Positions 38,757-54,152 of a stretch of 64,000 bases of DNA are shown here, piece after piece. Position 1 is the stretch's first letter. Every line of letters begins with the position of its first letter. Location: NCBI GenBank assembly GCA_963811105.1, contig CAWEPZ010000003.1, forward strand, positions 63,957 through 127,956, read 5' to 3'. A program made the position numbers and the translations under genes. Below the pieces are notes generated by a model. The model searched no databases. It saw only the letters and a list, made by a program, of their open reading frames with translations, and was not told where the DNA came from. Source of the DNA: Candidatus Bathyarchaeota archaeon. GTDB taxonomy: Archaea > Thermoproteota > Bathyarchaeia > Bathyarchaeales > Bathycorpusculaceae.

Positions 38757-39162
38757 AGTTGCGAAAATCTCGCTGTTCCAACCTGAAGGTGTCTGCGCGA
38801 ACCTGGACTTGGGCTACAAGGGAGTGAAGAACGATTATCCTAACTTCAACTGTAAGGTGCCCTTCAAGAGGCGAAGCCTGGGAAGAGGCAAACGCAGAGT
38901 GGAGGCGCAAGAGCTCACGCCTGAGCAGAAAGCCTTCAACAAGACGCTTTCAAGTGACAGAATCGTCGTGGAGCATGACTTTTCGAGGCTGAAAAAGTTC
39001 CATATTTAGGCTGATGAGTTTCGAAACCGTTTCAAACATTACGATATGATGACAGATCTTGTGTGTGGGTTGCTTAACTTCAGGATAATGGGAACAATAT
39101 TCGTCTAGCACCGATCGAAAAACAAACAGGCGACTCAGAAAAATAATAGAGACTAAGGTCTA
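38757..39162 (+). mobile_element. IS5-family (DDE_Tnp_4-like) transposase 3' remnant with right end
   Basis: DLGYKG, QKAFNK.LS.DRIVVEH..SRLKKF; internal TAG; ends ...GACTAAGGTCTA. Confidence 0.75.
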
Positions 39163-39321
39163 GTTAAAATACTGGAAAGAAAACTCGCTAAATAAAAAAG
39201 AGCCCCAAATAAATCCCGTTAACTGTTTCAAAAATTTTATCTAAACAATAGAAAGTAGGTGTGCCGTCATCGTTCTCCATTAATCTGAGGTTGGCGAGCA
39301 CCTAAAGAGGACTATGCTTAT
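39161..39321 (+). repeat. Duplicate of the wecB 3' end plus repeat A (matches 40613-40773)
   Basis: TAGTTAA.ATACTGGAAAGA.AACTCGCTAAATAA...CTAAACAATAGAAAGTAG shared. Confidence 0.9.
39249..39321 (+). repeat. Repeat A copy 1 (core 39261-39305)
   Basis: GTGCCGTCATCGTTCTCC...GGTTGGCGAGCACCTAA. Confidence 0.95.
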
Positions 39322-39415
39322 TTATTTCGCTGGAAAATGTTAAGAATTCGCGGTCCTGGTTTTTTGGCAGGTCTGTTTTAATATATTGGATGGCTTAGTT
39401 TGGGTTGATTTGGTG

Positions 39416-39865
39416 ATGGCGTCAAAGAGGGGTGAGTCTGGTTTTATTTCTTTGGCTCTTTATGATCGGATAGTGCGGTTGATGCCTATTACTTCGGTTG
39501 AAGCTGTTATTGTGATTGATGGTTGTTTGCTTTTTTTGAGAAGGAAAAATGATCCTGCTGTGGGGCAGTGGTGGTTTGCGGGTGGAAGGATTCATAGGGG
39601 CGAGTCGTTTGAGGAGACGTTGCGCCGGGAAGTTAAGGAAGAAACTGGGCTTGAAATTGAGTCTTGTCGTTTTATTAAAGCATATTCAAGGGTTTTTCCC
39701 AAGCGACATGACATAACCATCGCTTATTTATGCAAATGTAAAAGAAGCAAAATAACGCTTGACAGTGAGCATTCAGAATACAAGCTTTTCAAGAAGATGC
39801 CAAAAGATTTACATCCCTATCTGCTTGAGACCATAAAAGATTCCCACTGGAAAAAACAGTTATAA
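39416..39865 (+). CDS. NUDIX hydrolase
   Basis: GGRIHRGESFEETLRREVKEETGL Nudix box; GGTGA SD. Confidence 0.92.
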   Translation: MASKRGESGFISLALYDRIVRLMPITSVEAVIVIDGCLLFLRRKNDPAVGQWWFAGGRIHRGESFEETLRREVKEETGLEIESCRFIKAYSRVFPKRHDITIAYLCKCKRSKITLDSEHSEYKLFKKMPKDLHPYLLETIKDSHWKKQL

Positions 39866-39921
39866 TTTGACCATCCTGCTTTTCAAAAAGGAACTCTCAA
39901 CGCTTAAAGTATTACGAGTAA

Positions 39922-39980
39922 GTTGTGCCGTCATCATTCTCCACTCATGTGGGGTTGGCGTGCGCCTAAAGTTGACTATG
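39922..39980 (+). repeat. Repeat A copy 2 (core 39925-39969)
   Basis: GTGCCGTCATCATTCTCC...GGGGTTGGCGTGCGCCTAA. Confidence 0.92.
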
Positions 39981-40229
39981 TATCGTGAGTTAGATTTTTT
40001 GGGTGTTGAAATTGGTGTGTTTTGTGAATGGTTTTTAGCCATTCAAGTTTCTCATTTTGAATCCTTATTTTGAACGGAACTTTCTGATTCGGTTTGTGTT
40101 CTGGAAAAGGAGGCTCGATTTTTTCTTCTTATTTCTTAATTTGAGCTGTATGATGATTCAAGTAACATGGTATCGTTGACTTGTTTACTTTCATTCTCGT
40201 TTTGTATGCTGGTAATAATTATCGTTATT

Positions 40230-40647
40230 ATGCAGAAAGTTCAGAGTGAATTTAAGCTTCCGTTGATTTATCCTAATTCATCCTAGGGCAAGAAAGCAAC
40301 TGGACGCATTCGGAATAGATTCTGGGGGCATTACGTTTGTTGAGCCTTTAGATTATTTGGCTTTCCTGCAGCTTGAGAGCAAAGCAAGACTTGTTTTAAC
40401 TGACTCGGGCGGGGTGCAAGAAGAAACCTGTATTCTGGGTGTTCCATGTGTTACGTTGAGGGATAATACTGAAAGGCCTGAAGCGGTGGATGTTGGCGCG
40501 AACGTTCTTGCCGGTACTGATCCTGAAAGAATTCTTGAGGCATCAAAAAAGACCCTTAATAGTAAGAAAAGTTGGACTAACCCATTTGGCGACGGTACAA
40601 CTGGTAAAAAAATAGTTAAGATACTGGAAAGAGAACTCGCTAAATAA
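40230..40647 (+). pseudogene. wecB: UDP-N-acetylglucosamine 2-epimerase 3' fragment
   Basis: HPR, TDSGGVQEE, PCVTLRDNTERPE, NPFGDG; most of the 5' part missing. Confidence 0.88.
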
Positions 40648-40700
40648 GAAAGAGCCAGAAATAAGTCCCGTTAACTGTTTCAAGAATTTTATCTAAACAA

Positions 40701-40779
40701 TAGAAAGTAGTTGTTCCGTCATCATTCTCCACTAATCTGGGGTTGGCGAGCACCTAAACCTGACTATGCTTATCTCATT
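40701..40779 (+). repeat. Repeat A copy 3 (core 40713-40757)
   Basis: TAGAAAGTAGTTGTTCCGTCATC...GCACCTAAACCTGACTATGCTTATC. Confidence 0.95.
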
Positions 40780-40919
40780 ATCTTTTATATGTTTTTTTTG
40801 GGGTTGTTTGGTTAAGGATCAGATGGAGAGGGCATTATAGCCAAGGCCAGCCTTGGTTACGATTGTTTTTTTGATCAAGGGCAAAGTTTGTAAATTAATT
40901 AACTTGCTATGAGATGTGA

Positions 40920-41429
40920 TTATGTTTGGGCTGCTATTTTTCTTGCTTCTTTGATTGTTTGTATGTAGACTTCTTCTTTTAGTCTAAAGCCTTTGCTTAT
41001 GAGTAAATTGAGGATTTCAATGCATTCATCCAAGTCTATTTCTTTTTTCTCTTGGGCTTTTAATAAAACAAAAATTGTTCCTCTGGGCGTTAAATCTAGC
41101 AATCTTGCAGCTGAGCGGGCTGAAACCTCATCTAAAAGTACTGTGGTTAAGTTTAGTTCTTTTGCAAGAGATAGTGCTGCAATTTCCCCTTCATGAAGCT
41201 TTATTGGAGCTTCTATTTTCTTTGCTGGCAGGACTTTAAGCCAGCCTTCGCTGATTGCTTTCTCAATAATGTATGCGTCTTGTTCGCCTATAAGTTTGCC
41301 TTTATCTACAACTTCGTTTTTGACTTCTTGGGGGATGAAAACTGTTTTGAATACTTTTCTTAGCAGGTCAATTTTGCCAGCTTTTGCTAAGTAGATTAGG
41401 GGGGTTGAGTTGGAGACTACGCCGCTCAT
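40920..41429 (-). CDS. PIN-domain toxin (DUF3368-like)
   Basis: VSNSTPLIYL, LHEGE.AAL.LA, LLDE..AR..A, GT. Confidence 0.88.
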   Translation of the reverse strand: MSGVVSNSTPLIYLAKAGKIDLLRKVFKTVFIPQEVKNEVVDKGKLIGEQDAYIIEKAISEGWLKVLPAKKIEAPIKLHEGEIAALSLAKELNLTTVLLDEVSARSAARLLDLTPRGTIFVLLKAQEKKEIDLDECIEILNLLISKGFRLKEEVYIQTIKEARKIAAQT

Positions 41430-41740
41430 TTAGGTGAAGTCCTTTGTAGGCCTTTGAGGTCTTCTTTGAATTCTTCTAGGGTGTATGGAACGTGGGTTCC
41501 TCTTTTTTTGGTTTCCAGGGTCATTTCCCAAAGCGATAAATTGCATGTTTTTGCGGCTTGCCAGAGTGTGATTTTGCCTTGCTCATAATCATCTAAGTTT
41601 TTTTCGATTAACCATTCTTTCACGGCTTTCATTAGAAACCTTCTGATAACTGTGGACCTGTCCATGCCTTCTTCTTTGGAAACTTCGTCTATGACTTTGG
41701 CTAAGTCTTCTTCAATTCTGGTTGTAAACGTTACAGGCAA
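41426..41740 (-). CDS. RHH/UPF0175-like antitoxin
   Basis: DRSTVIRR RHH, Y.QGKITL.QAA; 4-bp overlap with the toxin. Confidence 0.85.
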   Translation of the reverse strand: MPVTFTTRIEEDLAKVIDEVSKEEGMDRSTVIRRFLMKAVKEWLIEKNLDDYEQGKITLWQAAKTCNLSLWEMTLETKKRGTHVPYTLEEFKEDLKGLQRTSPK

Positions 41741-41845
41741 TTAACTTTACCTCATGTATTAAAAATATTCATTTTAATATTAAAGCTTTCTGCAACTACG
41801 CGACTCCTGATTTATCTTTCAAAATTTGTTTAATAATTTAAAGAA

Positions 41846-42090
41846 GTTTGTGCCGTCATCGTTCTCCAATATCTGGGGTTGGCGAGCACCTAAACCTGAC
41901 TACGCTTATCTCATTTAAGGGCAAATAGAACATCCCTGCATTCTTGCCTTCAGCAGACGGAACGTGACATTTGCAGACGCAACCAGAGAGATCTGTGGAG
42001 CCTGTTCAACAAAACCAACCAAAACCAGACTCGACGCTGCACACACAAAAAAACACCGTTCATCATCTATCAGACAACAAACCCTCCAAA
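41846..42090 (+). repeat. Repeat A copy 4 (core 41850-41893) joined to repeat B
   Basis: Near-identical to 53895-54030 across the A-B junction. Confidence 0.93.
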
Positions 42091-42372
42091 ATATAAACTT
42101 AAATGCTAAGCCTCGCCAAATCCTTAATTAAAATAAACCTATGCGAATATCAAGAAAGCGTAAGCCGTCAAATAAGCGCATAGTCCTTAAACTAAAGAGA
42201 AATAACAAAATCAGGCAGTATCTGCATTGGATGTTTTGACAGGTTACGGGAATGGTGCTTCTTGGGCGCCTCATGACACTCTATTAAATGAATAGATCTA
42301 TTAACAAATCTAAATCAGGACAATGCCCAGAAAAAAGTTAAGATCTTATTGGAGATAAAATAATTGAGTGAA

Positions 42373-42723
42373 TTATTCTTCTTTATAGTCACTGTTGAGT
42401 AATTTTTTAATTAGCGGTTTCAAAACTGGTAAATCTAAAAACACTGCGTCCCATAATATTTCTAGCTTAATGTAAGAGTATCCATGAATTATTTTGTCTC
42501 TTATTGCCGCCATTTGCTTCCATGGAATTTGAGGATACTTGCTTTTAGTTTCTGCAGGAATATTTTTAGAGGCTTCACCTATAATTGCAAAATCCATCGT
42601 TACAGCTCGAATTGCCATCTTATTTTTAGTAAATTCTTCAAAAGTGAGGTTTTTGGTGAATTCTTCAATTTCTTCAATCGACTCAAGGATATCAACAAAG
42701 TAAACCCTAAGTTGCTTAGTCAT
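42373..42723 (-). CDS. HEPN (DUF86/HepT-like) RNase toxin
   Basis: IIGEA, IPW, RDKIIHGY (RX4HXY). Confidence 0.92.
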   Translation of the reverse strand: MTKQLRVYFVDILESIEEIEEFTKNLTFEEFTKNKMAIRAVTMDFAIIGEASKNIPAETKSKYPQIPWKQMAAIRDKIIHGYSYIKLEILWDAVFLDLPVLKPLIKKLLNSDYKEE

Positions 42724-43019
42724 ACATAAACAACTTCGCTCAACACACGGTCTTTGAGGGTTGGTTTCAAACCACCTTTAGCCACTAAATCTACTTTCAC
42801 ACCTAACTGTTCGCTCAAAAAAATCTCCATCTCCACATACTTCAAGAGACCTATATGGGCATCATTTGCGAACTCTACTAGAACGTCTACATCGCTCTTC
42901 TTGTTTTGCTCTCCGCGAACATAAGAACCGAAGATTCCTATGGTTTCCACTTGAAATTTCTCTTCAAGGATCGGCTTTAGCTCTTCCAGTCTCTTTTTAA
43001 TATACTTGATACTCTTCAC
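42720..43019 (-). CDS. Minimal nucleotidyltransferase (MntA-like) antitoxin
   Basis: FGSYVRGEQ...SDVD (GSX10DXD), KVDLV. Confidence 0.92.
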   Translation of the reverse strand: MKSIKYIKKRLEELKPILEEKFQVETIGIFGSYVRGEQNKKSDVDVLVEFANDAHIGLLKYVEMEIFLSEQLGVKVDLVAKGGLKPTLKDRVLSEVVYV

Positions 43020-43341
43020 ATTTTATCCTTTTATAATATGGCTTTACCCTTTTTAAATTCATGTTGGTCCCAATCCGGGTTAGCAAAAAAACTAACTAAA
43101 GCAGAGAACGCTGGATTAATAGAATAACGTTAGAGAAAAGGGAAGATGACATCGTTTAGCTTAAAGAAACTGTAACCCCAAAACAATCTACTTTTTTCAA
43201 TAGACATTTACTCAAAAGTTGACTGTGCAGCATGTGTCATGCAATAGAAAATAATAATTGAATCGCAACAAGCCATTTTTCAAACTCGCCAATAACCTGC
43301 TTGATAATTGAAAAAAAAATTGAGGGAAGTTTCTTTGTGGT

Positions 43342-43851
43342 TTATTTGTTTATGGCGATGTTGCCGGATGTGATCGGTGTTGGGTCCATGGAGCAGTGTA
43401 ATTGACCGTTTGGCTCATAGAGTGTGATGCTGATTGTGTCTTTGGCTTTTGTGTTTGAGTCAAACGCGGTGATTGTGAATGTCCAGCTTTCTTGCCATGG
43501 GTTATTGTCCATTTTTACGGTGGCAGATCCAGTGAAGGTGGCTTGTAAACCTTTTTTGACTGATTCAACACTAAAACTCGTTATTTCGTCGCTTTTAATG
43601 GTCATAAGGATTTGTTTTTCTTGCACGCAAACCAGGTTGAAGAAGCCTTCTGCGCCATTTTTCTGCTCGAAGACGCTGAAATCAAAGTAATGCTTGTGGG
43701 TTACTCCTGATTCGTCATGGAGAAATACTCCTGCTCCAACAGCAAAAGATTTTTCGCAACTCTTGTTTGTTGGTTTGGCGTTTACTATGGATAGCGTTGC
43801 AGTGAGGCTTAATATTATTACAATTGAGATGACTATGGCTTTGCTTTTCAT
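43342..43851 (-). CDS. Hypothetical secreted beta-rich protein
   Basis: Signal peptide; GAGGT SD; ends ITSGNIAI. Confidence 0.7.
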   Translation of the reverse strand: MKSKAIVISIVIILSLTATLSIVNAKPTNKSCEKSFAVGAGVFLHDESGVTHKHYFDFSVFEQKNGAEGFFNLVCVQEKQILMTIKSDEITSFSVESVKKGLQATFTGSATVKMDNNPWQESWTFTITAFDSNTKAKDTISITLYEPNGQLHCSMDPTPITSGNIAINK

Positions 43852-43914
43852 TAAATTACCTCGGTTTTCTTATGGATATTGATATAATATTGGTTTGTTG
43901 GCGGCAAGACACAG

Positions 43915-44290
43915 CTACAACCGCCTTTGAGCACACAAAACCTGACGTATGCAGAGGCAACCAAAAGCCCTCCAAAGCCTAACAACAAACGCAACCCAAA
44001 CCTTCAATGCACGCACAAAAACCCTGCTACTTCTATCAGACAAAAAAATAAAGAATTAGAAAGTAGTTGCGCCGTTATCGTTCTCCAATTATGTGGGGTT
44101 GGCGAGCACCTAAACCTGACTACGCTTATCTTATTTAACAGCAACTATAATCCTTGTCTTCTTGCCTTCAGCGGACGAATAATGACATATGCAGATGCAT
44201 CCAAAAATATCTCCAAAGCCCTTTCAACAAAACCAACCCAAAACAAACCCGAGACTAAAATGCGAATCCCCACTTTCTTATTCTAACAAA
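43915..44290 (+). repeat. B-A-B composite repeat (A copy 5 core 44069-44113)
   Basis: Period about 241 bp; parallels 53720-54135. Confidence 0.9.
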
Positions 44291-44392
44291 TGAAAACGCA
44301 GTCATCAACAAGAAATAACACAGATATTGTAATAGTCCAATGAATGAAAAGCTGAGTATTTTGCCAGTATTTTGTCGACTACCACGATTATT

Positions 44393-44818
44393 TTATACGC
44401 TAGGTAGTTTGGCTATGCCATCTATGTTGTTGAAGTGTTCATCAAAGGTGTATATTTCTGTTATTTCATTTTGGCGCATTATGTCTACTGCTAATGCATC
44501 GTTGGGTTCGAGTTGAAGGTCCTGACCCAATTCGGCAGCGGCAAAATAAGCATCCTTTGTTACGTCCACTATTTTCAAGTTGTTTAGCATGAAGAGTCCG
44601 AGAATTATTTGTGTTAATTGATCTTGGGGCATACCGTTTTTTAGGATGTTAACTATTTCAGAGATGTGCACAACTGTTGTTGTTACCATCTCTTTGCCTT
44701 GTGATATGTTGCTGACTATTTTTTTTGCTTGGTCTTTCATGGCTTCTTCTTTTTGTGTTAGCTGTTTTTTTGGTCTGTAATAGGCGTAGATGAAAATGTT
44801 TGCATCCAAGAATCTCAT
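44393..44818 (-). CDS. VapC-like PIN toxin
   Basis: FLDANIFIY, PNDALA, IYTFDEHF. Confidence 0.9.
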   Translation of the reverse strand: MRFLDANIFIYAYYRPKKQLTQKEEAMKDQAKKIVSNISQGKEMVTTTVVHISEIVNILKNGMPQDQLTQIILGLFMLNNLKIVDVTKDAYFAAAELGQDLQLEPNDALAVDIMRQNEITEIYTFDEHFNNIDGIAKLPSV

Positions 44819-45069
44819 ATTTGTTCCTCAGAGATTTTCTTTTCAAATTCACTCCAACTGCCAATTGATTTAACGCCTAAGTCGACTTTGTCAAAGTATT
44901 TGGTTAAATCCACGTGGCGCTTGGGAACTAACTTCAAGTAGCCTTTCCTTTTTATAACATAGAGTTCTCTACTTTCTCCTATTTCGGCTTCTCGCCAATC
45001 TACTGGCAGAATGAGGCGACCCTGAGAATCCACTTTTTTCACTTCTACACCACTTTCCAAAACTTTCAC
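44815..45069 (-). CDS. AbrB/MraZ-like antitoxin
   Basis: KVDSQGRLILP; 4-bp overlap with the toxin. Confidence 0.85.
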   Translation of the reverse strand: MKVLESGVEVKKVDSQGRLILPVDWREAEIGESRELYVIKRKGYLKLVPKRHVDLTKYFDKVDLGVKSIGSWSEFEKKISEEQI

Positions 45070-45311
45070 CAGAAAATATTATTGCACACCACCCTAAAAA
45101 GTTTATGAAACAAATCACCTTAACCAAAAAAGCGAAAATCCAGACATAGGGTAAAGTACAAGATCCAAAAAATGAACATTCAAGACAGTCCTTCCAAAAA
45201 ACCTATCCGGAAATAACTGAACACTCTTTATCCCTGTCTACTCTAAGTCAATTAGATGTATTCTATAAAAAGAATAAAGAACGAATACCGAACTCAGATA
45301 GCACACACCAA

Positions 45312-45591
45312 CTACAGTGGATCAAGCCTAACCTCAGTTACATGATTATCAAGATTGAATTTACCATCTTTGAATAATGCAATTGCCAGCTTGGGGATTA
45401 CTATTCTTCCGTCTTTGCTTATTCTGGATAGAAAACTCTGGGGAAGCTGCCATGCTCCAAGGATTTTTACGGTTACTTGTAAGATTTGTGTTGGTTCTAG
45501 TCTTGTAGTGCCATCTGACGTATTTTGGAACTTGCACTCGATTGCCTTGCTGCAACCTTGTTTTAAAGGAGACGCGTTCAGTTAACGGCAA
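45312..45591 (-). pseudogene. Double AbrB-like domain protein; one frameshift
   Basis: MPLTERVSFKTRLQQGNRVQVPK.../...SKDGRIVIPK; shift near 45503. Confidence 0.65.
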
Positions 45592-45746
45592 CTACAAAAC
45601 TTCTCCGTCGTCAACCTTCGGCAGCCTAAACCAGACGTTTGCAGACGCAACCAAAAAGCGCGCTTAAGCCTATTCAACAAAACCAAGCTAAACCAAACTC
45701 CATTGCAAATGCAAAAACACATGTTCTACTTCCAATAGACAACAAA
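45587..45746 (+). repeat. Repeat B in its apparent native position, between the primase stop and the AbrB-like start
   Basis: GACGTTTGCAGACGCAACCAAAAAG...TTCAACAAAACC...AGACAA shared with other B copies. Confidence 0.85.
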
Positions 45747-48302
45747 TCACACATCATCCTCTAACCCGTAATGAATTTCATAACTTGTAGAGTCGTAGGC
45801 TAAGAGAATCTTGTCTAGATGCGCCTTGCACCAGACGGACTTATTGCCTTCAGGGCTAATTAGGTAGTGCTCGCTCCCAAAGCCACAGTCGCATCCAGCT
45901 GAATTAGCGCCCTCACATGGTTCACCCTGACTTGGCAAAACCCTAAGCACCAACTTACCCAAACACCCAGCGCTATTTTTTTGCTCCAACAAAGCAGTGG
46001 CAGCTTTGGCACTTATTTTACGCTCAACAAAATCGTCATCGGCTTTTGATTTAATTTTATTCGGCTCCAAACTACCTGCCACATCTGCCACTTCAGCCAC
46101 AGCATCGATCTTAGTCTGGACCTCCTGACTTTGTTCTTTACTCTTAAGACCAATACCCATAAAACCCCTCTCAGTTCTCGTCTTATACTCCTTAACTTTA
46201 GGCATATCCCTTAAACGCTGAAAAAACCTGCGTTCCGTATCAGGCACCCGACCCAACTCTTGATCCACATAATTCTTGTAATCCTCAAAACTTACTTTTC
46301 TACAAAAAAACTCTCCAGAACCCATAACACAATTATCCTCTACCCAAGCAGCAAAAGGATCAGAAAGACGCTTAAACTCCAACATCACCTCAGCAGTCGT
46401 CTTACTTATCGTAAAATCACCATTCTTAACAAGACGCCTAAGACCTTCAAGCATCCAATTAAAAATCCCCGAAACCTCAACTGGATCACTAAGCCATGTG
46501 CGCTCAACATTGTCTATTTGGCTTTTACCCTTAAACTCGTTAGGAAACTTTAAGATTAAAGTCCGGTCTTCAAAAGCAACGCTCGTATCATCGACTTTAG
46601 GAAACTCGTTGCCCAACACAAACGCTTTAGCAATATTACGAAACGTCAAACGCTTCTGTTTACCCTTAACCTCAGCATCCAAGGTATCCTCACCTGTTAT
46701 CTTCTTCAACAAAGGCGTCTGCAACGAACCAGTCGTATAGGGTTCGCTACTAACATTAACCAGCTTACCATAAAGCTGAGCTAACGCAAAACGATGTTCA
46801 CCGTCAAACTCTCCAAGCTCAAGATAACTACAGTTCTCCACACCAACTATAGCTTCCACCGTTGCGATAACTCTGCCTTTGCCGTTTCTGCCCCGCCCAT
46901 AAAACCACATCATCTTGTGCTTGGGCATAGCTGGCAAGATGCAATATCCCATATACTCCTGCAGCAACGCCTGATCATCCTTGGGTAATATTTGATCCAA
47001 AAAAGTCTGCCAAACAGGATACTTGTTAGCTGGATTGAAGTGGATGTTGAGCCTGTAAGTGAAAACAAAGTCCGGATCAAAAGGTTTTAACTCTGATGTA
47101 GTTAAAGAGAGTAATCCGTTGAGTACTGGAACAGATCCTTCATAGCGATTAAACAATGAACGCTCAACGTAGCTGCCACGCTTGAGATGCTCTAAAACCT
47201 CATCAACAAAGTGGCTACTAGCCGACGACCCCAACTCACGCTCAAGCAACCCCTCAACCAAGCACTCAGCAGGCTTGTAGATTCCATCGCAATAATAGTA
47301 GAGATCACGCAGGTCCATAGGCGTCTTAAACGTGTATTCACTACGCAGACGCTCTAAGACTTCTTCGAGTCTTTGATCTTTAACCTCTTTGGCACCATTT
47401 GTAGATTGAAGTTTCCGGATGCACCCGCCACATTTGTCTAAGGAAGCGCCAAAAACCTGGAATAACGGAGTGCTAACATGCCCTGTTTCAGGATTCATTT
47501 TAGCGGTGCAGGGATGTGGTTTGCCGCCTCTCTGATGAAAAACATGTGCACATGCAACTTGGGACTGGGTTATACTATAATCATAGTCTCTTCTGCCTTC
47601 TGAGCTGTAGACTGTTTTGAAGAAGTCCTGGATTTCATCATCCAAAAAACCTTTCGAAACCATAAACGCCGCCAAAGCCAACCTCTGAAAATGATCCAGC
47701 CGAATATGCTTCCTATCAACGACAGCGCTTATACAGTTGAAACGCAAAAAATCGTACCGCTCCAACTCTTCACAAAGAAACGTCTTAGTGTCCGCAATTA
47801 TGGCGTTATCAACCTTTATTGGGGCATCTAAAAACCGAGCATAAGGCTGCTTAGTACCTTCGCAATCCTCTGCAAAACCGCCGACAGCAACATAGCCGCC
47901 GTTCTCAAATTCCATATGCAAATGCCGCTTAAACGGGCTACTGTTTTCGTTCTCAGAAGTCAAATAGAGCATACGGTAACCCATATTGGGTGTTCTAAAC
48001 GTCAGAGTCTTGGCTCGATCACCAAAGTGTTTGCTCCAACGGTAAGCAAGAAACTCCCAATCCCAATCCAAACAAGCCAAACCCCCAAGCCCGCTGCGAG
48101 GACCAAAATTCCAAGCCTCAACCTCACTTCTCTGCGCTCTATCGACCAGAGCTTCTAAATCCTGCATCGACTGACTAACAATATCCTTCCAGGAACCCAC
48201 AAGACGCGACGGATTCTTCGACTTATCCCCTATCAACAGAACCCATTCAGGATGAACTTTTTTTAGCAAATAGAGCTCATTCAAATCAAAAGCAATCGTC
48301 AA
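45747..48302 (-). CDS. Primase-polymerase / SF3 helicase (P4/D5-like) replication protein
   Basis: Prim-Pol LDWD, RTP..GY, GYV; PriL-CTD-like Cys domain; GRGRNGKG Walker A, KKITGED, EVKGK. Confidence 0.9.
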   Translation of the reverse strand: MTIAFDLNELYLLKKVHPEWVLLIGDKSKNPSRLVGSWKDIVSQSMQDLEALVDRAQRSEVEAWNFGPRSGLGGLACLDWDWEFLAYRWSKHFGDRAKTLTFRTPNMGYRMLYLTSENENSSPFKRHLHMEFENGGYVAVGGFAEDCEGTKQPYARFLDAPIKVDNAIIADTKTFLCEELERYDFLRFNCISAVVDRKHIRLDHFQRLALAAFMVSKGFLDDEIQDFFKTVYSSEGRRDYDYSITQSQVACAHVFHQRGGKPHPCTAKMNPETGHVSTPLFQVFGASLDKCGGCIRKLQSTNGAKEVKDQRLEEVLERLRSEYTFKTPMDLRDLYYYCDGIYKPAECLVEGLLERELGSSASSHFVDEVLEHLKRGSYVERSLFNRYEGSVPVLNGLLSLTTSELKPFDPDFVFTYRLNIHFNPANKYPVWQTFLDQILPKDDQALLQEYMGYCILPAMPKHKMMWFYGRGRNGKGRVIATVEAIVGVENCSYLELGEFDGEHRFALAQLYGKLVNVSSEPYTTGSLQTPLLKKITGEDTLDAEVKGKQKRLTFRNIAKAFVLGNEFPKVDDTSVAFEDRTLILKFPNEFKGKSQIDNVERTWLSDPVEVSGIFNWMLEGLRRLVKNGDFTISKTTAEVMLEFKRLSDPFAAWVEDNCVMGSGEFFCRKVSFEDYKNYVDQELGRVPDTERRFFQRLRDMPKVKEYKTRTERGFMGIGLKSKEQSQEVQTKIDAVAEVADVAGSLEPNKIKSKADDDFVERKISAKAATALLEQKNSAGCLGKLVLRVLPSQGEPCEGANSAGCDCGFGSEHYLISPEGNKSVWCKAHLDKILLAYDSTSYEIHYGLEDDV

Positions 48303-48736
48303 GTCAACCCCTCCGATCTAACCAAAAAAGTAACTTCGCCAACACCTAACAAGCGAACCTGGCTACGACCAAACAAAAAAATCTCACCATGACCTCTCTC
48401 CACTATTACTTTCACAATCTCGCACTCGCTCAACTTCACAAACGCTTCTTTCTGCCAATTAGCCATAACATTCCAATCAACGCAAAAAACAGACTCTGGA
48501 TCCTTGAAACCATCAAACCTGACGCCCTGAGAGGCAATAGATTTTATCGGGACTTTTCCATCTGGAAAAACCTCTCTCCACACCTCTTTTGCTTCCCAGG
48601 TCAACCCAGCCCAGGCTCGACAGGCACTCAAAGCACTTTGCACCTTACTTTGGCTGTAGTTTTTTTCGGTAGATTTTGTCAGGTCCATATAGCCAATAGC
48701 TGTACTGGTAGTCGATGCCATGGTAGCGGTCTTCAA
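48299..48736 (-). CDS. Hypothetical element protein (true start probably downstream)
   Basis: 4-bp overlap with the primase start; FPDGKVPI segment. Confidence 0.5.
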   Translation of the reverse strand: MKTATMASTTSTAIGYMDLTKSTEKNYSQSKVQSALSACRAWAGLTWEAKEVWREVFPDGKVPIKSIASQGVRFDGFKDPESVFCVDWNVMANWQKEAFVKLSECEIVKVIVERGHGEIFLFGRSQVRLLGVGEVTFLVRSEGLT

Positions 48737-49004
48737 TTGTTGAGTTGCTATTGCGTAAGATCGTGAATGCTATTTGCCATTTATCGTCCAAGTTGGCTTT
48801 CTTGTAGGCTATTTCAAACTCTCCTAGCTTTGCGCCCTTCTGGGCTTCATATTTTAGAGTCGTAAAATTGGCTTCGTTCCCTTTAGCCAATTCATTTTTT
48901 AGTCCAAGAGTTGCCAACGACTGTCTGTAAACTTCAGACGCATCAATAAGCAGTTTACCTATATGGGAAAGTTTGAGCAAAAATTCTTCTTCAAACACAT
49001 TCAT
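48645..49004 (-). CDS. Hypothetical element protein
   Basis: 119-aa ORF co-oriented with the primase; YSYWLYG..KIYR tail. Confidence 0.65.
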   Translation of the reverse strand: MNVFEEEFLLKLSHIGKLLIDASEVYRQSLATLGLKNELAKGNEANFTTLKYEAQKGAKLGEFEIAYKKANLDDKWQIAFTILRNSNSTIEDRYHGIDYQYSYWLYGPDKIYRKKLQPK

Positions 49005-49256
49005 TGAACTCGCCCGCTATGATCGATTTTACCTTATTATATCGCCAATTTGCTTGGCTACATCGTGCTTGTCTATGGTTTTGCTCTATTTTGTATACAC
49101 ATTGTTTGAAAAGAAAAACGGCTTGACCTGTGTTAATTTTATTTATTTTTCTTTTTAGCTTCATGTTTTGTGGTATCACTGAGGTATATTGGTAAAACTT
49201 TAATATTAGGATACGGAATTGGTATCTGGATACGAATAAATTAAGCAGGTATAACT

Positions 49257-49961
49257 GTGAAAGGAAGAAGCAAATTCAACAATCCAAAAACAAGAAAAGC
49301 CGAAATCTATCAATTAATCGTACGCGAAGGAACCGAAGCCAGATGGAAAACCCTAAAAACACATCTAGAAGAACTCCGCCTCGGACCAACCACCCTCAAA
49401 CAAACCCTCGATGAAATGATAACGGAAGGAAGTATAACCAAAGAAGCCCGGCTAGGAACAGAAGGAGCAGAAGTCTGGTACAAAATCGCAACAAAACTCG
49501 ACGCAATCTGGGGTAACCCCGAAAAAAACATGCAACAAGCGGAAAGCATCCTAAAAGAAGCCTATACCTTAGATCAATACTATAAAAAAATTAAGGAAAA
49601 AGCATCAACACTAAACGATAAGGAAAAAACCGATTACCTCCAAACACAAATGGAAATAGTTTTCGAAAACGCAATGGAGAGTTATGCCAAGTATTTGGGT
49701 TCTTATGTAAGAGGCGCTCAATGGGCCAATCCAACAGAACTTGACTATGTATTTAATTACTACATTAACAGCGTTTTTTTGGAAGACAATGCACTTTATC
49801 AAAAAATTCTAGCAGAGTATCCAATAGGCAGCCTTAGAGCAATTCATAGTTTTCTACTTGAGGATCAGTCTAAGGTGGATAAAGCCATTTTAAAAGAGGA
49901 AAAAAACAGGAAAACAAAAATATCAAAAATGAGAAACGAGACTTCTCAAAAAAAGCTGTAA
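49257..49961 (+). CDS. Divergent wHTH putative regulator
   Basis: N-terminal wHTH (PTTLKQTLDEMITEGSITKE..WY); CAGGT SD. Confidence 0.65.
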   Translation: MKGRSKFNNPKTRKAEIYQLIVREGTEARWKTLKTHLEELRLGPTTLKQTLDEMITEGSITKEARLGTEGAEVWYKIATKLDAIWGNPEKNMQQAESILKEAYTLDQYYKKIKEKASTLNDKEKTDYLQTQMEIVFENAMESYAKYLGSYVRGAQWANPTELDYVFNYYINSVFLEDNALYQKILAEYPIGSLRAIHSFLLEDQSKVDKAILKEEKNRKTKISKMRNETSQKKL

Positions 49962-49973
49962 CTGCAAAGAAAT

Positions 49974-50018
49974 GTGCCGCCATCATTCTCCATCCAAATG
50001 GCGGTACCCGGCGCCTAA
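49974..50018 (+). repeat. Repeat A copy 6 (diverged)
   Basis: GTGCCGCCATCATTCTCCA...GGCGCCTAA; same 45-bp length. Confidence 0.8.
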
Positions 50019-50136
50019 CGAAGTTAAGAAATCATTTTCTTGGGAAGAAATTGCACGTCTTCAAAAACTTGCTTGACCACAAAATATTTAAGTAGTACTT
50101 TCAGATCAAGTTGTACCTAAAAACTGAGGTTGGATT

Positions 50137-50364
50137 ATGGAAGCTCTCGTTACCCGCAAGGGTCAAGTTACCATCCCTGTTGAATTAAGACGTCAATACA
50201 AGATAGTGGAGGGCATGAAATTGACGGTTGAAGATTCCCCTTCAGGCATAATTTTCAAAGTTATTCCAAAAATCGAAGACCTAGCAGGCGTAGATGCCCA
50301 AAAAATCACCATAGAAAAAGCATTTGAAATCATAGATAAAATGCGCGCCCAAGACCGAATCTAA
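50137..50364 (+). CDS. AbrB/MazE-like antitoxin
   Basis: VTRKGQVTIPVELR. Confidence 0.9.
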   Translation: MEALVTRKGQVTIPVELRRQYKIVEGMKLTVEDSPSGIIFKVIPKIEDLAGVDAQKITIEKAFEIIDKMRAQDRI

Positions 50365-50365
50365 T

Positions 50366-50770
50366 ATGCAAGCCGTAATAGACACAAGGTTTTTAGTTAC
50401 ACATTTTCTAGCCCCTGATGAAGAAACAAAGAACTGGACCAAAACAACACTTGAAGCTCTTCAAAAAGAACCCAACCAGGGAATAATACCCACTATAGTA
50501 ATTCATGAATTTTACAAGTTTGAAATGCAAACCCTCGGAATAGACGTCGCCAACATCAGAATCAACATCATCATGAAATCAAAATTAACCATAACTAACC
50601 TGGATTCGTCCATTGCTATTGAAGCAGCACGACTAAGATGCAAATACGCCGACTTGCCTACAGCAGACGCCATCATAGCTGCCACCTCCATCAACTCATC
50701 GGCCAACTTTATCCTTACCGACGACAAGCACATTAAACAAATCAAAGAAACCAAAACCAAGTGGATATGA
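50366..50770 (+). CDS. VapC-like PIN toxin
   Basis: VIDTRF, HEF, ADAIIAAT, LTDD.H. Confidence 0.9.
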   Translation: MQAVIDTRFLVTHFLAPDEETKNWTKTTLEALQKEPNQGIIPTIVIHEFYKFEMQTLGIDVANIRINIIMKSKLTITNLDSSIAIEAARLRCKYADLPTADAIIAATSINSSANFILTDDKHIKQIKETKTKWI

Positions 50771-50829
50771 ACATAAGTGCAAATCAATCAATTTTCTTAT
50801 TTCCCAATTTTTTCAAAAAAATGATAAAG

Positions 50830-50890
50830 AATTAGAAAGCAGTTGTGCCGTCATCGTTCTCCACTAATCTGGGGTTAGCGAGTCCCTAAA
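50830..50890 (+). repeat. Repeat A copy 7 (core 50845-50889)
   Basis: AATTAGAAAGCAGTTGTGCCGTCATCGTTCTCCACTAATCTGGGGTTAGCG. Confidence 0.93.
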
Positions 50891-50989
50891 TCAGATGATG
50901 AATTATCATGGAAAACATGTGTTCCTGCCCAGATATCAATAGTGGGAAAACTTAAATTAGTGGAATCATAATTTATTGTGGGAAATTCA

Positions 50990-51244
50990 ATGAGTGAAAC
51001 AACCGCGAAAATAGATGAGAAAGGCAGAGTAATGATTCCCAAAAGCATCAGAAAGGCAGCCAAAATTGAGGCAGGAACATACGTTAACATCAAGGCGACA
51101 GACACAACCATAATAATAGAACAGTCTGAATCTATAGCTGAAAAATATAGCGGTCTCTTCCAGATAGCTAAATGGCCTGAAGACTTGGATGAATTTATAG
51201 TGGAGGCAACTAGAAAATGGTGGACAAATCACGCTTCTATGTAG
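50990..51244 (+). CDS. AbrB/MazE-like antitoxin
   Basis: KIDEKGRVMIPKSIR. Confidence 0.9.
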   Translation: MSETTAKIDEKGRVMIPKSIRKAAKIEAGTYVNIKATDTTIIIEQSESIAEKYSGLFQIAKWPEDLDEFIVEATRKWWTNHASM

Positions 51245-51642
51245 ATGTAAATGTATTTGTTTACTGGCTTGGGAATCACCCAAAATACGGGCATGTAGCG
51301 TTGGACTGGATTAAGAAAATGGAAGCCTCTCCACGAGGAGAATATGTTACGTCAGCTTTAACACTTTATGAAACACTAGTGATAATATGTGGGTTAACTG
51401 GCAAGAATTTGAAAGACAAGAACTTTGTGCAACAGGTTGTCAATCCGATAACGAGAATCAAAGGATTAGTTATTGAATCCCTTAGATCAGAAGACTTCAG
51501 GAAAGCCGCGGACTTGATGAATGAATGCAAACTTGACTACGAAGACTCACTTCATCTCGCCGTAGCGATAAGAACTGGTGCACAAGAAATAATCTCAAAC
51601 GATAAAGACTTTGATGCTACCCAAATCAAAAGAACTATGTAG
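51217..51642 (+). CDS. VapC-like PIN toxin
   Basis: YVDVNVFVY, YEDSLHLA, ISNDKDFD. Confidence 0.9.
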   Translation: MVDKSRFYVDVNVFVYWLGNHPKYGHVALDWIKKMEASPRGEYVTSALTLYETLVIICGLTGKNLKDKNFVQQVVNPITRIKGLVIESLRSEDFRKAADLMNECKLDYEDSLHLAVAIRTGAQEIISNDKDFDATQIKRTM

Positions 51643-51684
51643 ATAACTGCAAGTGCGATGTGAAACCTTATCGCAAATGCGAGC

Positions 51685-51702
51685 AATTAGAAAGTGGTTG
51701 TG
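51685..51702 (+). repeat. Repeat A left-arm fragment (copy 8)
   Basis: AATTAGAAAGTGGTTGTG, then diverges. Confidence 0.7.
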
Positions 51703-51830
51703 AGAAGTTGCTGCTTCTGCCACTCGCTCCCTGCACAATAGTTGCTACAATCAACCCAACAAAAACTTCTTTTTAAAACGTCCAGAAACAATTATATTCT
51801 GGATTATCCAGATAACTTAGATGATCTACA

Positions 51831-52103
51831 ATGGCAACAATCCTAGTAAAAAACCTGCCTGAAGAACTACTAAAAGAACTAAAACGGCTAAAAATAGAAC
51901 TCGGCTGTAAAACCTGGGCAGACCTCCTATCAGAACTAGTCACCAGCGAAGAAACCCTACTCAACGAAGAAAAAAATAGCGAAACCGAAACCGGCGTCAA
52001 AAACTTCCTAAACCTAAAAACCGCAGTCTCAACCGAATGGAATAACAACCCAACCGTACTGCAAGAAACACGCAGGTCTAGACGACATGAAACAGCCAAG
52101 TAG
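51831..52103 (+). CDS. RHH-like antitoxin
   Basis: MATILVKNLPEEL..ELKRLK..LG..TW. Confidence 0.8.
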   Translation: MATILVKNLPEELLKELKRLKIELGCKTWADLLSELVTSEETLLNEEKNSETETGVKNFLNLKTAVSTEWNNNPTVLQETRRSRRHETAK

Positions 52104-52533
52104 ACGCCTTACTCTAGACTCCAACGTCCTTATCGCCGCATTAAAAGCAGATGAACCTCACAGTGAAAAATGCGCACAAATACTTAGCAAGGTACCAAAC
52201 AACTTCCAATTAGCTGAGCCAAGTATCATCTACCAAGAAGTGTGTGGGACTCTTGCCAGAAAAACAAACCTTGACATAGCCAACATGGCAAAAAAGCAAA
52301 TGGACCTTATGATTAATCCAAAACTGCTAACGAACTGTGACAAAACCCTATGTACCTCAGCATTTTGCTTGTGCTCAGAATATAAAATTTACACTATCGA
52401 CGCACTCTACCTACAGGTAGCTCTAACGAACAAAGCTATCATGGTTTCACTTGACAAAGAAGACTTTGTAGACAGACTTAAACAGAAAAAGTTACCCATC
52501 GAAGTCTACAGTGTCTCCGACTTTCCCTACTAA
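52087..52533 (+). CDS. VapC-like PIN toxin
   Basis: LDSNVLIA, EV, DALYL.VA, VSLD. Confidence 0.88.
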   Translation: MKQPSRRLTLDSNVLIAALKADEPHSEKCAQILSKVPNNFQLAEPSIIYQEVCGTLARKTNLDIANMAKKQMDLMINPKLLTNCDKTLCTSAFCLCSEYKIYTIDALYLQVALTNKAIMVSLDKEDFVDRLKQKKLPIEVYSVSDFPY

Positions 52534-52685
52534 AACAACAAAACTGTTTCTTTATCTGCAAGTGTCTCTAACGTTGCAAGTATCTGCTCCATCTTGATGT
52601 AAGTGCCGACCATTTCCTTGAAAAGCTTCTTTGGAATAACGATTCCTTCGTCTTTGATTTTGACTTTGCCTCCAACTGAATGCAC
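52530..52685 (-). pseudogene. Truncated antitoxin-like ORF
   Basis: KVKIKDEGIVIPKKLF...ILATLETLADKE; no partner toxin. Confidence 0.4.
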
Positions 52686-52918
52686 CTGAGTAATAGACAG
52701 TTTAAGCGGTTTTTAATTCTTTTCAGACAAATCTTTAATTTCGAACAAGAGTCTCTTACTTGAAACGTGATTACAACAGAAGCCAAGGTTGCTGATTAAT
52801 AGAGAAAGCCTTAGTGAACAAGAAGACCCCCCACTATACCTTGCAAGTCGTACACCAGACAACAATCAACTCGCCTTCATCTCAAATTTTGTCAAGAAAT
52901 GTAAAATAAATAAAAAAA

Positions 52919-52930
52919 GGTTGTGCCGCC
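52919..52930 (+). repeat. Repeat A fragment (copy 9)
   Basis: A-rich flank plus GGTTGTGCCGCC directly before a TA promoter region. Confidence 0.5.
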
Positions 52931-52980
52931 GGTAAGTTAAATAAATGATGTGTATACATTATGTATGTAGGAGGCTTAGG

Positions 52981-53208
52981 ATGTCAAGGCAGATTTCAGT
53001 CTCAAATGAAGTTTATGAACTTCTATCAAAAAGGAAAGGCAAAAAGAGCTTTTCGCAGGTTATAAAGGAGAATCTGTGCTCGGAGGAAAAAAAAGTGGAC
53101 ATCATGAGCTTTGCAGGAATCATGAAAGGCGACAAGCAGAAGCTTGAGCTATTGAAATCTAAAATAGCAGCCGAAAGAGAAGCTAATTACGGAAAAGCAT
53201 TGACGTGA
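52981..53208 (+). CDS. VapB-like antitoxin
   Basis: ISVSNEVYELL..RK.KKSFSQVI. Confidence 0.88.
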   Translation: MSRQISVSNEVYELLSKRKGKKSFSQVIKENLCSEEKKVDIMSFAGIMKGDKQKLELLKSKIAAEREANYGKALT

Positions 53209-53212
53209 GCAT

Positions 53213-53587
53213 ATGACTTTCATCGATACCAGTGTCATAATAGATTTCTTAGCGGGGGATGAAAAGATTGTTTCCTTAATCAAGGAACTAGCTGAGAAAG
53301 AAGAAATCAAAACAACGACTATAACAGAGTATGAATTACTCAAGCATAAGACCGAACTAAAAAGGCAGGTTGCAGAAAAGTTTTTGTCAGCAATAATAGT
53401 TTGTCCTTTCGACAGAACCTCTGCCAGAAAGGCGGCTTTACTTTTTGAGAAGCTTAGCAAAACTGGAAAGATGATCAACGAAAATGATTTGCTTATAGCA
53501 GGAATTTCATTCGCCAACGACGAACTTCTGTTGACGCGTGACCAAAAATTCGGTAGCATAGATGACGTAAAAATAAGGATAGTTTAA
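53213..53587 (+). CDS. VapC-like PIN toxin
   Basis: IDTSVIIDFL, EYEL, NDLLIAG, LTRD..F. Confidence 0.92.
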   Translation: MTFIDTSVIIDFLAGDEKIVSLIKELAEKEEIKTTTITEYELLKHKTELKRQVAEKFLSAIIVCPFDRTSARKAALLFEKLSKTGKMINENDLLIAGISFANDELLLTRDQKFGSIDDVKIRIV

Positions 53588-53719
53588 ATGCTCAATCCCA
53601 AGACCTAAACCTAAGAGTGCTAACGAATTAATTGATTTCAAAAAGTTACCAAATAGCGTACGAGTTGGGAAATTTAGGCTGGTAACTGTTTGATGTATTT
53701 GCAATTTGATTTTTGTTAC

Positions 53720-54135
53720 TAGAACATCACTCCCAGTATAACCTCAGCTAGACGAAACGCGATATATACAGAAGTAATCCACAATACCCTGCAAAGCCTT
53801 TCAACAAAAGTAACCCAAAACAAACCTTTAATGCAAGCACAAAAACCCTGCTACTTCTATCAGACAAAAAATAATAAAGAATTAGAAAGTGGTTATGCCG
53901 TCATCGTTCTCCTGGCATGGGGTTGGCGAGCACCTAACCCTGACTACGCTTATCTCATTTAAGGGCAAATAGAACATCCCTGCATTCTTGCCTTCAGCAG
54001 ACGAAACGTGACATTTGCAGACGCAACCAAAAAGCCCTCCAAAGCCTGTGCGACAAAAGCAACCCAAAACAAACCCCACTGCAAAGTGCAAAAACACCTG
54101 TTCTTCTTTTATCAGACAAATAAACCACTCCAAAA
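53720..54135 (+). repeat. B-A-B composite repeat (A copy 10 core 53895-53937)
   Basis: Period about 249 bp; parallels 43915-44290 and 41846-42090. Confidence 0.92.
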
Positions 54136-54152
54136 CAGAAGAAGCCTAATTA

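Follow-up and report, generated by a model that had tools for sequence, protein, structure and literature searches.

The stretch of DNA analysed here (the window; 64,000 nucleotides (nt), positions 63957-127956 of contig C3 of assembly G000) comes from Candidatus Bathyarchaeota, a soil archaeon of an uncultured lineage that is widespread in soil and sediment. The assembly comprises 3.49 Mb in 15 contigs, with a GC content of ~41%, a completeness of 96.65% and a contamination of 4.3%. A score of 1489.5 bits with the archaeal SSU model identifies the organism as an archaeon; a search for ammonia monooxygenase, made for the taxonomy, had no match, but neither did its control in any genome, and it carries no weight. 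Between positions 39161 and 54150 of the window (coordinates without a genome label are window positions, and contig numbers without one are contigs of G000), small gene modules, including single toxin-antitoxin (TA) pairs, are punctuated by copies of a non-coding repeat that all face the same way, which we call repeat A. A second repeat, repeat B, accompanies it. We tentatively read repeat A as the junction site of a lineage-specific archaeal cassette array.

Repeat A has a core of ~50 nt, or 75 nt when its semi-conserved arms are included. Alignments of 46 copies (A1) and 122 copies (A2) give, in order, a semi-conserved left arm (AATTAGAAAGTAG), block 1 (TTGTGCCGTCATCRTTCTCC, the conserved part of which is also given as GTTGTGCCGTCATCRTTCTCC), a variable spacer of 4-9 nt, block 2 (GGGGTTGGCGAGCACCTAAA) and a semi-conserved right arm (CYTGACTAYGC), and agree with the consensus written in the initial annotation of the window. 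The polarity is GTT...AAC on both strands. A repeat search together with a 19-nt block-2 pattern located seven strong copies, at 39261, 39925, 40713, 41850, 44069, 50845 and 53895; with up to 3 mismatches the pattern has 7 matches in place of the 0.02 expected, and none of 100 shuffles reached 7. An nhmmer profile built from the seven strong copies added a degenerate copy at 49974 (E 3e-4) and found no further match on the window's contig outside window positions 39240-53962. Two additional copies, at 51685 and 52919, consist only of the left arm and the 6-12 nt with which the core begins, and fall below the profile threshold; the one at 52919 is a truncated copy of A, because in a metagenome contig its left flank runs into a full core (joint 52917->40709). 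The initial annotation had counted eight full and two partial copies: all ten exist, but one of the eight is degenerate and the partial ones are truncated. Its observations that the copies are co-oriented (all on the + strand), intergenic and absent from the rest of the window were correct. No copy overlaps an open reading frame (ORF) with a Pfam match, and the overlapping ORFs are all unsupported. Spacer length differs by 1-2 nt between copies, which rules out a coding repeat and makes A non-coding; a minus-strand GGAG with an ATG start in block 1 was dropped as not conserved (ATA, for example, in the copy at 44069). Neither adjacent target duplications nor terminal inverted repeats were seen at the edges of the aligned copies.

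Repeat B, which like the copies of A outside the window was absent from the initial annotation, is ~150 nt long and CA-rich on the + strand, and has six copies in the window (all nhmmer). It stands directly after A, directly before it, or alone. In the mapped set (125 A and 85 B copies, located in G000 and in parts of 11 further genomes), B and A point the same way in each of the 84 cases where a B copy has an A within 30 kb. B did not score as a structured RNA on either strand (z +0.3 to +1.8).

The array begins with a 45-nt remnant of a wecB tail (39161-39205, 87% to 40613-40793) before A copy 1 (39240-39330, core 39260-39305, +). Copies 1 to 5, 7 and 8 were each found by the repeat search, the pattern and nhmmer. 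A NUDIX hydrolase module (39386-39865, +; PF00293, E 1.7e-16) precedes copy 2 (39904-39994, core 39924-39969, +), and a 3' fragment of wecB (UDP-GlcNAc 2-epimerase, Epimerase_2; 40357-40647, +; PF02350, E 1.4e-31, profile positions 252-347 of 347) precedes copy 3 (40693-40780, core 40712-40757, +). Next come a UPF0175 antitoxin/DUF3368-PIN toxin pair (40920-41740, -; Pfam), copy 4 (41829-41918, core 41849-41893, +) and a B copy (41925-42082, +; E 1.4e-45). The following interval carries an MNT (NTP_transf_2)/HepT (HEPN) TA pair (42373-43019, -; Pfam) and a 169-amino-acid (aa) protein with no Pfam or PHROG match (43342-43851, -), and closes with a partial B copy (43926-44046, +) directly upstream of A copy 5 (44048-44138, core 44068-44113, +). 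Between copy 5 and the degenerate copy 6 (49967-50031, core 49973-50018, +; its CGCCAT/ATGGCG stem is kept) lie a B copy (44145-44299, +), a PIN toxin with an 84-aa upstream partner (44393-45069, -; PF01850), a frameshifted c1 gene (AbrB-like, 92 aa; 45315-45591, -; two tblastn pieces of 76% and 93% identity), another B copy (45615-45748, +), a P4-family primase-helicase of 851 aa (45747-48302, -; TIGR01613, D5_N, DUF5906, PHROG DNA primase, PDB 7ola), c56 (145 aa; 48299-48736, -), which is syntenic with the primase in other genomes, and c57 (234 aa; 49257-49961, +), a putative winged-helix protein that is likewise syntenic with the primase and has no recombinase signature.

The remainder of the array holds four antitoxin/PIN pairs. 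A MazE/AbrB-type antitoxin/PIN pair (50137-50770, +; Pfam) is followed by A copy 7 (50824-50910, core 50844-50889, +), which has a rare block-2 variant in common with the copy at C10:22386, and by a second MazE/AbrB-type antitoxin/PIN pair (50978-51642, +; Pfam), a module also present in a C10 array at 97% identity. Direct reading of the sequence then gives a truncated A (51670-51702, +; left arm and GTTGTG only). After a 90-aa partner/PIN pair (51831-52533, +; PF01850), the second truncated A (52915-52930, +; GGTTGTGCCGCC only) stands where the metagenome contig has the full core. The array ends with a VapB-type antitoxin/PIN pair (52945-53587, +; PF02697, PF01850), a partial B copy (53744-53870, +), A copy 8 (53874-53962, core 53894-53937, +) and a B copy (53969-54124, +), the last element before an IS630-like transposase (Pfam DDE_3/HTH). 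Pfam agrees with the cargo named in the initial annotation (NUDIX, wecB fragment, UPF0175/PIN, MNT-HEPN, antitoxin/PIN pairs and primase), and, as it had also noted, genes switch strand along the array while the orientation of A is constant.

The primase-helicase scores 174.7 bits against TIGR01613 (cut-off 108.7) and matches the DNA primase of PDB entry 7ola (E 1.5e-14). Its surroundings are not peculiar to the window: the order A-B-c1 (antisense)-B-primase-c56-c57-A recurs in the window, G115 and G110, and primase genes lie within arrays in five of the seven genomes examined. The module is also found at loci free of A, as B-c1-B-primase in G110:C1 and G010:C19 and as primase-c56-c57 in G092:C20, so A is not simply the attachment (att) site of a primase element. 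Relatives of the primase (50-52% identity) adjoin tyrosine integrases at G013:C34:3945-8656 and G049:C5:88881-92599 (PF00589, 36.5 and 71.5 bits). These two loci are ordinary integrase-plus-primase elements, unlike the integrase-less primases linked to A; their integrases are 25-37% identical to tyrosine recombinase family I of G000, which is encoded on other contigs, and this is a lead, not a link.

Neither gene family serves as a proxy for the repeat. Among 120 species genomes of the genus (the genus set), the primase family occurs in 33 and does not track A cleanly, and the c1 family, which has a weak AbrB signal (TIGR01439, E 4e-4), occurs in 65, many of them without A, only a close subfamily tracking the arrays. 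The family of c1 (a 92-aa double AbrB-like protein) is multi-copy, with up to 11 matches per genome at 40-60% identity, most of them far from any A, and may mark other mobile modules. At G012:C1:7600-11150, c1 and B stand in tandem triplicate with a period of 1539 nt (B at 7912, 9451 and 10990; c1 at 7620, 9159 and 10698).

Across the whole of G000, the A profile has 22 matches in five places of the 3.49 Mb: the window array (8), two arrays on C10 (6 each) and two singletons. The two C10 arrays (20012-25598, +, and 53890-64550, -) are oppositely oriented and lie 28 kb apart. In the genus set, A is present in 27 of 120 species, with a core that is 75-90% identical across the 27; 5 of the 24 congeners first sampled had it, and none of the 16 outgroup genomes, which belong to other genera of the same order. 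A pattern scan of 185,579 species genomes gave 7 matches, all in Candidatus Bathyarchaeota; with a gap of 4-12 nt this pattern takes the shortest copies only, and the 7 matches show the taxonomic label, not the range. Adjacent A copies within 30 kb of each other are co-oriented in 106 of 107 pairs (125 copies, 12 genomes), the lone exception being the pair that bridges the two C10 arrays. Spacing in the mapped set has a median of 1.44 kb (interquartile range 0.9-4.1 kb, range 0.24-27 kb), and an array has up to 18 copies. Related genomes do have co-oriented arrays of A, as the initial annotation anticipated, and the copies are clustered, not scattered through the genome in random orientation.

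Throughout the arrays, the intervals hold single TA pairs (PIN with a MazE/AbrB-, VapB- or UPF0175-type partner, HepT/MNT, ParE, HicAB), and the other cargo consists of NUDIX, small proteins that are secreted or unknown, and gene fragments from the 3' end. The arrays lie in glycosylation/polysaccharide islands (wecB, Wzx-type flippase, YdjM, DUF1616, glycosyltransferases, archaeosortase-like genes), where A has the orientation of the adjacent glycosylation genes. On C11, a single A comes after a full-length wecB, and B-c1-B and a flippase gene come next; this wecB tail plus A is also present in the window, as two decayed copies. A radical-SAM gene and a PQQ_2 beta-propeller surface protein adjoin both the C3 array (57690-61352) and the first C10 array (G000:C10:16377-19838), the flanks of which may be paralogous, or strain variants within the bin. 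At G012:C10:7470-14290, a segment of ~5 kb with three A-bounded modules is duplicated in tandem with flanks 91-100% identical (A positions within the stretch 2470/3370/4228 and 7472/8372/9230).

Some other features of these contigs lie apart from the repeats. To the left of the window array, outside the A intervals, is an AbiEii-type nucleotidyltransferase toxin (PF08843, E 6e-23) with a 211-aa upstream partner (36439-37733, -). Transposase remains stand on both sides of the array: a DDE_Tnp_4 fragment at 38734-39009 (+), and the IS630-like transposase at 54168-55219 (-), which is split into HTH and DDE_3 ORFs and lies directly past the last B. On C10, a 107-aa ORF (G000:C10:48619-48942, -) matches the eukaryote-type ribosomal protein L22e (PF01776, E 1.3e-8, above the gathering score), a protein discussed mainly for Asgard archaea and unexpected in a Bathyarchaeota genome.

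Modules are exchanged between sites and between species. Among 105 near-full copies of A, 20 pairs share (at an identity of at least 85%) the left flank only, 28 the right flank only and 5 both. Left-flank homology falls to background at alignment column 33/34, just before GTAGTTGTGCC, and right-flank homology resumes from column 85, just after CCTAAA. The blocks common to G104 and G115 are about 80-95% identical and stand in scrambled order, so that the module order is not fixed between species, and 160 of 174 inter-genome blocks retain their orientation relative to A (counted as high-scoring segment pairs, which are not independent). For one AbrB/PIN module, most 40-nt windows compared between G104 and G115 show 95-100% identity, and brief stretches drop to 90-94%; since this exceeds the identity of the other blocks of the two genomes, the transfer looks recent. 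The identity tract starts just after the CCTAAA of the upstream A, runs through the next A and ends ~65 nt into B, and G093 has only the first 330 nt of the module. In this one recent transfer the downstream A did move with the module, which leaves the evidence for a site that moves with its cassette mixed and mostly negative. Within G000, the two C10 arrays have a segment of ~300 nt in common at 99% identity (the 3' end of a DUF3368-PIN gene and the sequence downstream); this copy arose recently within the genome and stops exactly at the A core. Metagenome contigs of three studies join the A3 region to the module after A7 of G000; this material (four runs, short contigs at 90% likeness, DNA only and none RNA) may stem from relatives. 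Read depth, uncovered parts and joints that go back at repeats were ambiguous in the metagenomes and were not used as evidence for circles, and the habitat labels of runs with small word shares were likewise set aside.

The points at which homology breaks off could be placed in several comparisons. They lie exactly at the left core edge (C10:24395 versus C10:53890, left flank 99%), in the spacer (C10:22386 versus window 50845, both with the rare block-2 variant, and G104 versus G128), between columns 79 and 85 (G093 versus G104) and inside repeat B, ~65 nt in (G104 versus G115).

Folding was modelled on the same 105 copies. With RNA parameters and mononucleotide shuffles, the core alone (42-45 nt) has a mean minimum free energy of -12.3 kcal/mol on the + strand (z -1.84) and of -8.4 on the - strand (z -0.28). 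The asymmetry comes from two G.U positions, which in 122 sequences read UG 90, UA 22, CG 7 and other 2 at the first, and UG 80, UA 36, CG 1 and other 4 at the second. An imperfect hairpin of 14-18 bp with bulges can be drawn, and divergent copies in G073, G049 and G127 (CGTTATC...GATAACG and TCTCC...GGAGA) exchange wobble for Watson-Crick pairs and keep the stems. As judged from these models, a bulged hairpin on the + strand of A is plausible but not proven.

We could not find a recombinase in or near the arrays: none among the 52 ORFs of the window (Pfam), among 59 ORFs on C10, among 109 ORFs of at least 180 aa around six other arrays, or among 35 representatives of the small families that recur in arrays. 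A six-frame search with PF00589 in five array-bearing genomes gave 59 matches, none of them inside an array. A recombinase, if there is one, must accordingly work in trans. Assembly G000 encodes eight full-length tyrosine recombinases of two families, all on other contigs, and the array contigs C3 and C10 have no PF00589 match. No serine recombinase was found in the assembly, and the Y1 HUH transposase (PF01797) had no match in G000, with a control positive in 6 of 14 genomes; the co-occurring tyrosine or HUH recombinase that the initial annotation expected was not identified. The single Cas1 of G000 also sits on another contig than the arrays. A recombinase hidden in the primase element was sought with Pfam, PHROGs, NCBIfam, a PDB sequence search and the ESM Atlas, none of which gave one; they yielded only primase, winged-helix and replication-initiator-like leads, Atlas scores below 0.9 counting as leads.

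Repeat A does not correspond to a site or repeat of a known class. It is not part of a canonical integron, as the initial annotation had said: no IntI is encoded in the whole assembly (TIGR02249, best score 37.3 bits, cut-off 265), and the integron attC boxes R''/R' are absent. RYYYAAC...GTTRRRY occurs in attC order within +-60 nt at 2 of the 105 copies and is complementary at 6 or more of 7 positions at none. The opposite order of GTT and AAC, to which the initial annotation had pointed, holds as a description and does not count as evidence of mechanism. ARAGORN found no transfer RNA (tRNA) or tmRNA gene, and Rfam gave nothing in the window at its gathering score; when matches up to E 1 were admitted, positions 39100-54300 gave two chance-level ones (Na+ riboswitch, MIR169), neither of them on A or B. 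Together these scans gave no match to a known attC, tRNA or insertion-sequence end. A CRISPR array, with repeats of 24-48 nt, spacers of 25-70 nt and adjacent cas genes, does not fit a spacing of 0.24-27 kb and a lone Cas1 on another contig, nor do dispersed REP or MITE repeats fit 22 matches in five places with one orientation per cluster. The C/D-box small RNA and the archaeal origin box (ORB) were also considered, and motif order or arrangement did not fit.

Four kinds of described system come closer. Integrons have been reported in archaeal bins, mostly as clusters of attC sites lacking an integron-integrase (CALINs) that are rich in TA cassettes; the examples are canonical, bacterial-looking attC arrays, and the word Bathyarchae does not occur in the accessible part of that report (Ghaly et al. 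2022; PMC9668308). As far as that part goes, the A arrays resemble sedentary chromosomal integrons and CALINs in their co-oriented modules of ~1 kb split by one repeated site, their TA enrichment, sites that are similar within a lineage, arrays mostly without an adjacent integrase, and exchange of cassettes between species. They differ in having no IntI in the assembly, no R''/R' and L''/L' boxes and the opposite GTT...AAC polarity. Further, A keeps its sequence from species to species and folds weakly, whereas attC keeps its structure and leaves its sequence free; the A core is co-inherited with neither flanking cassette; and the genes of many modules face either way. Archaeal att cores of 29-69 bp, and arrays that arise from re-use of one integration site, are described in the part of Krupovic et al. 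(2019; PMC6563490) available to us. The A arrays are like these in that direct repeats of att-core length (about 45-50 bp) flank the units, and in that the units include a primase-helicase replicon whose distant relatives carry tyrosine integrases; they are unlike them in having up to 18 copies, ~1-kb units of one TA pair without an integrase, and a primase module that also occurs away from A. Full-text literature searches (integron/attC, TA cassettes, mobile elements of Bathyarchaeia) returned no such repeat in Bathyarchaeota or other archaea, and three exact-seed scans of IMG/VR gave only seed-length matches and no full A, divergent copies being able to escape such scans.

Two further systems are bacterial or satellite-borne. 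The pdif modules of Acinetobacter plasmids are bounded by 28-bp XerC/XerD sites in alternating orientation. Together with the minimal mobile elements of Neisseria, they resemble the A modules in being small, often TA, and bounded by short conserved sequences with the host functions elsewhere; unlike pdif, A is ~50 bp, non-palindromic as duplex DNA, strictly co-oriented and archaeal. P4-like satellites likewise tie a P4-family primase (TIGR01613) replicon to variable genes of the TA or defence type, but they have their own integrase and a single variable defence hotspot in place of a repeat-punctuated array.

From this evidence we favour, with somewhat less than even confidence, the reading that A is a junction (recombination) site of a lineage-specific archaeal cassette array that is served in trans. 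We prefer a recombinase acting in trans because of the strict polarity of A, the single module per interval and the flank homology that stops at the core edges. Repeat A would mark where modules of ~1 kb were inserted, exchanged between species and re-ordered. These modules comprise single TA pairs, small enzymes, surface-glycan genes reduced to 3' fragments, and a P4-type primase replicon that has its own repeat B inside. The arrays are anchored in glycosylation/polysaccharide islands and run in the direction of the island genes, a layout like that of an integron array minus its integrase (CALIN-like), with a site that is not attC and with no IntI. We infer that A would be cut and rejoined by a site-specific recombinase encoded elsewhere, for which the tyrosine recombinases on other contigs are the only recognised candidates in the assembly, and the weak + strand hairpin may form part of what the enzyme recognises. 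The cassette system with a recombinase in trans put forward in the initial annotation is thus sustained in its array layout and in the lack of a recombinase in cis, and not in any recombinase linked to A.

A more specific version, which we hold to be possible but doubtful, is a genus-specific and independently arisen analogue of the integron: an unrecognised enzyme, or a recruited host tyrosine recombinase encoded elsewhere, would cut a sequence-specific site of ~50 nt with a + strand hairpin at or near both edges, and kilobase modules, among them TA or defence genes, pieces of surface-glycan genes and even a primase replicon, would be inserted between resident sites and traded between species. 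Because the core remains in the array when a cassette moves, the reaction would be chemically unlike attC x attI recombination.

Several results count against a junction site cut by a dedicated enzyme. No recombinase is linked to A, and G104 has just one PF00589 match above the cut-off. There is no single crossover nucleotide: the module shuffling foreseen in the initial annotation is real, its fixed crossover point is not (left edge, spacer, right edge, inside B), and such a spread is what homologous recombination would give. The columns between 33/34 and 85 are at background in both the left-sharing and the right-sharing sets, so between species the core is co-inherited with neither flank, although saturation of unconstrained sites between species may contribute to this decoupling. 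Core mismatch is 0.218 between adjacent and 0.226 between distant copies, and 0.248 between genomes; that adjacent cores are hardly more alike than distant ones argues against a CRISPR-like duplication of the repeat at each insertion, and, with the lack of co-inheritance, indicates that the site does not travel with the cassette as attC does. Fourteen of the 174 blocks are inverted relative to A, and these trace to a few inverted module copies. The modelled hairpin of A is weak: under DNA parameters, 91-nt stretches do not fold better than their shuffled versions (z -0.5 to +1.2), RNAalifold gives 4 pairs, and covariation is marginal (score 0.123 versus 0.117, with 30 of 500 shuffles as high). 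Tyrosine or serine recombinase sites on double-strand DNA do not usually have a spacer of varying length, as A has (4-9 nt). Lastly, all genomes are metagenome bins, and part of the array structure could depend on the assembly.

Many of these points would be accommodated if A and B were conserved non-coding elements with another primary job, and modules were swapped by homologous recombination or gene conversion between them. The job could be that of a + strand RNA hairpin (a 3' end, a processing site or an insulator of glycan-island transcripts) or of a protein-binding or origin-like DNA site. The minimal mobile elements of Neisseria are reportedly swapped in this manner, via flanking homology. 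As an account of the shuffling, homologous recombination between repeats is about equal to a site-specific enzyme. In its favour, breakpoints occur across the core and within B as well, no recombinase lies in cis, and the core is decoupled from both flanks. The strand-asymmetric fold, with two G.U pairs per hairpin and nothing gained under DNA parameters, suits RNA more than DNA, and A is always co-directional with the neighbouring glycosylation genes. However, a general RNA or regulatory element would be expected at other operons and A is limited to five places in 3.49 Mb, while ~45 nt at 75-90% identity is short for efficient homologous recombination. Two of the informative recent events end within 1-6 nt of a core edge, which is unexpected if exchange points were uniform. 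Nor can A serve the transcript of each module, because the modules it punctuates have genes facing either way. We consider homology-driven swapping of this kind rather unlikely, though the main competitor.

Less probable again, though still to be reckoned with, is that A is the att core of small P4-type primase replicons, whose repeated integration and deletion left rows of att sites in which addictive TA pairs survive. Archaea are known to have integrations that re-use one att site, to judge from the available part of PMC6563490, and A-bounded primase elements are present in the window (44069...49974), G115 and G110, with primase genes in the arrays of five of seven genomes. Truncated genes, partial A and B copies and the frameshifted c1 suit such a history, as do the integrases beside the distant primase relatives in G013 and G049, with 25-37% identical ones in G000. 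Yet no element linked to A carries an integrase, and the same primase module lies at A-free loci (G110:C1, G010:C19 and G092:C20). Most intervals are clean single TA pairs of ~0.9-1.5 kb in place of random debris, single modules move between species alone, and exact-seed scans of IMG/VR contigs gave seed-length matches and no full A.

We regard it as highly improbable that A, with B, belongs to the small non-autonomous mobile repeats (MITE-, REP- or PATE-like) and has entered a tolerant region by many insertions. Repeat A is indeed short, non-coding, imperfectly palindromic and lineage-specific, but it is confined to five places in the genome, its edges have neither terminal inverted repeats nor target duplications, and the assembly has no Y1 HUH transposase (against the control, positive in 6 of 14 genomes). 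Self-insertion would not give flanks shared on the left and different on the right, and no filled and empty orthologous sites that differ by A and a target duplication were seen. The least credible alternative, an ordinary CALIN with divergent attC sites, has in its favour the TA-rich CALINs of the same layout in archaeal bins (PMC9668308, in the part accessible) and against it the best TIGR02249 score of 37 bits where 265 are needed, attC boxes in order at 2 of 105 copies and complementary at none, a GTT...AAC polarity on both strands, conservation of sequence and not of structure across 27 species, and a site that does not travel with the cassette.

Even if the shuffling proceeds by homologous recombination, an element of 50 nt that 27 species maintain at 75-90% identity calls for a function. 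Repeat A also gives a handle on gene flow, since a covariance model of it would locate variable islands directly. Among systems that store and shuffle cassettes of single genes, integrons alone are, to our knowledge, well understood. If A is indeed the junction site of a cassette array, such arrays would be a convergent solution, with a second, unrelated punctuation site in an uncultured archaeal lineage. It would further indicate that recombination acts on a new site, be the enzyme itself new or a host enzyme put to new use, and would explain how TA, defence and surface-glycan variants move between species of Bathyarchaeota.

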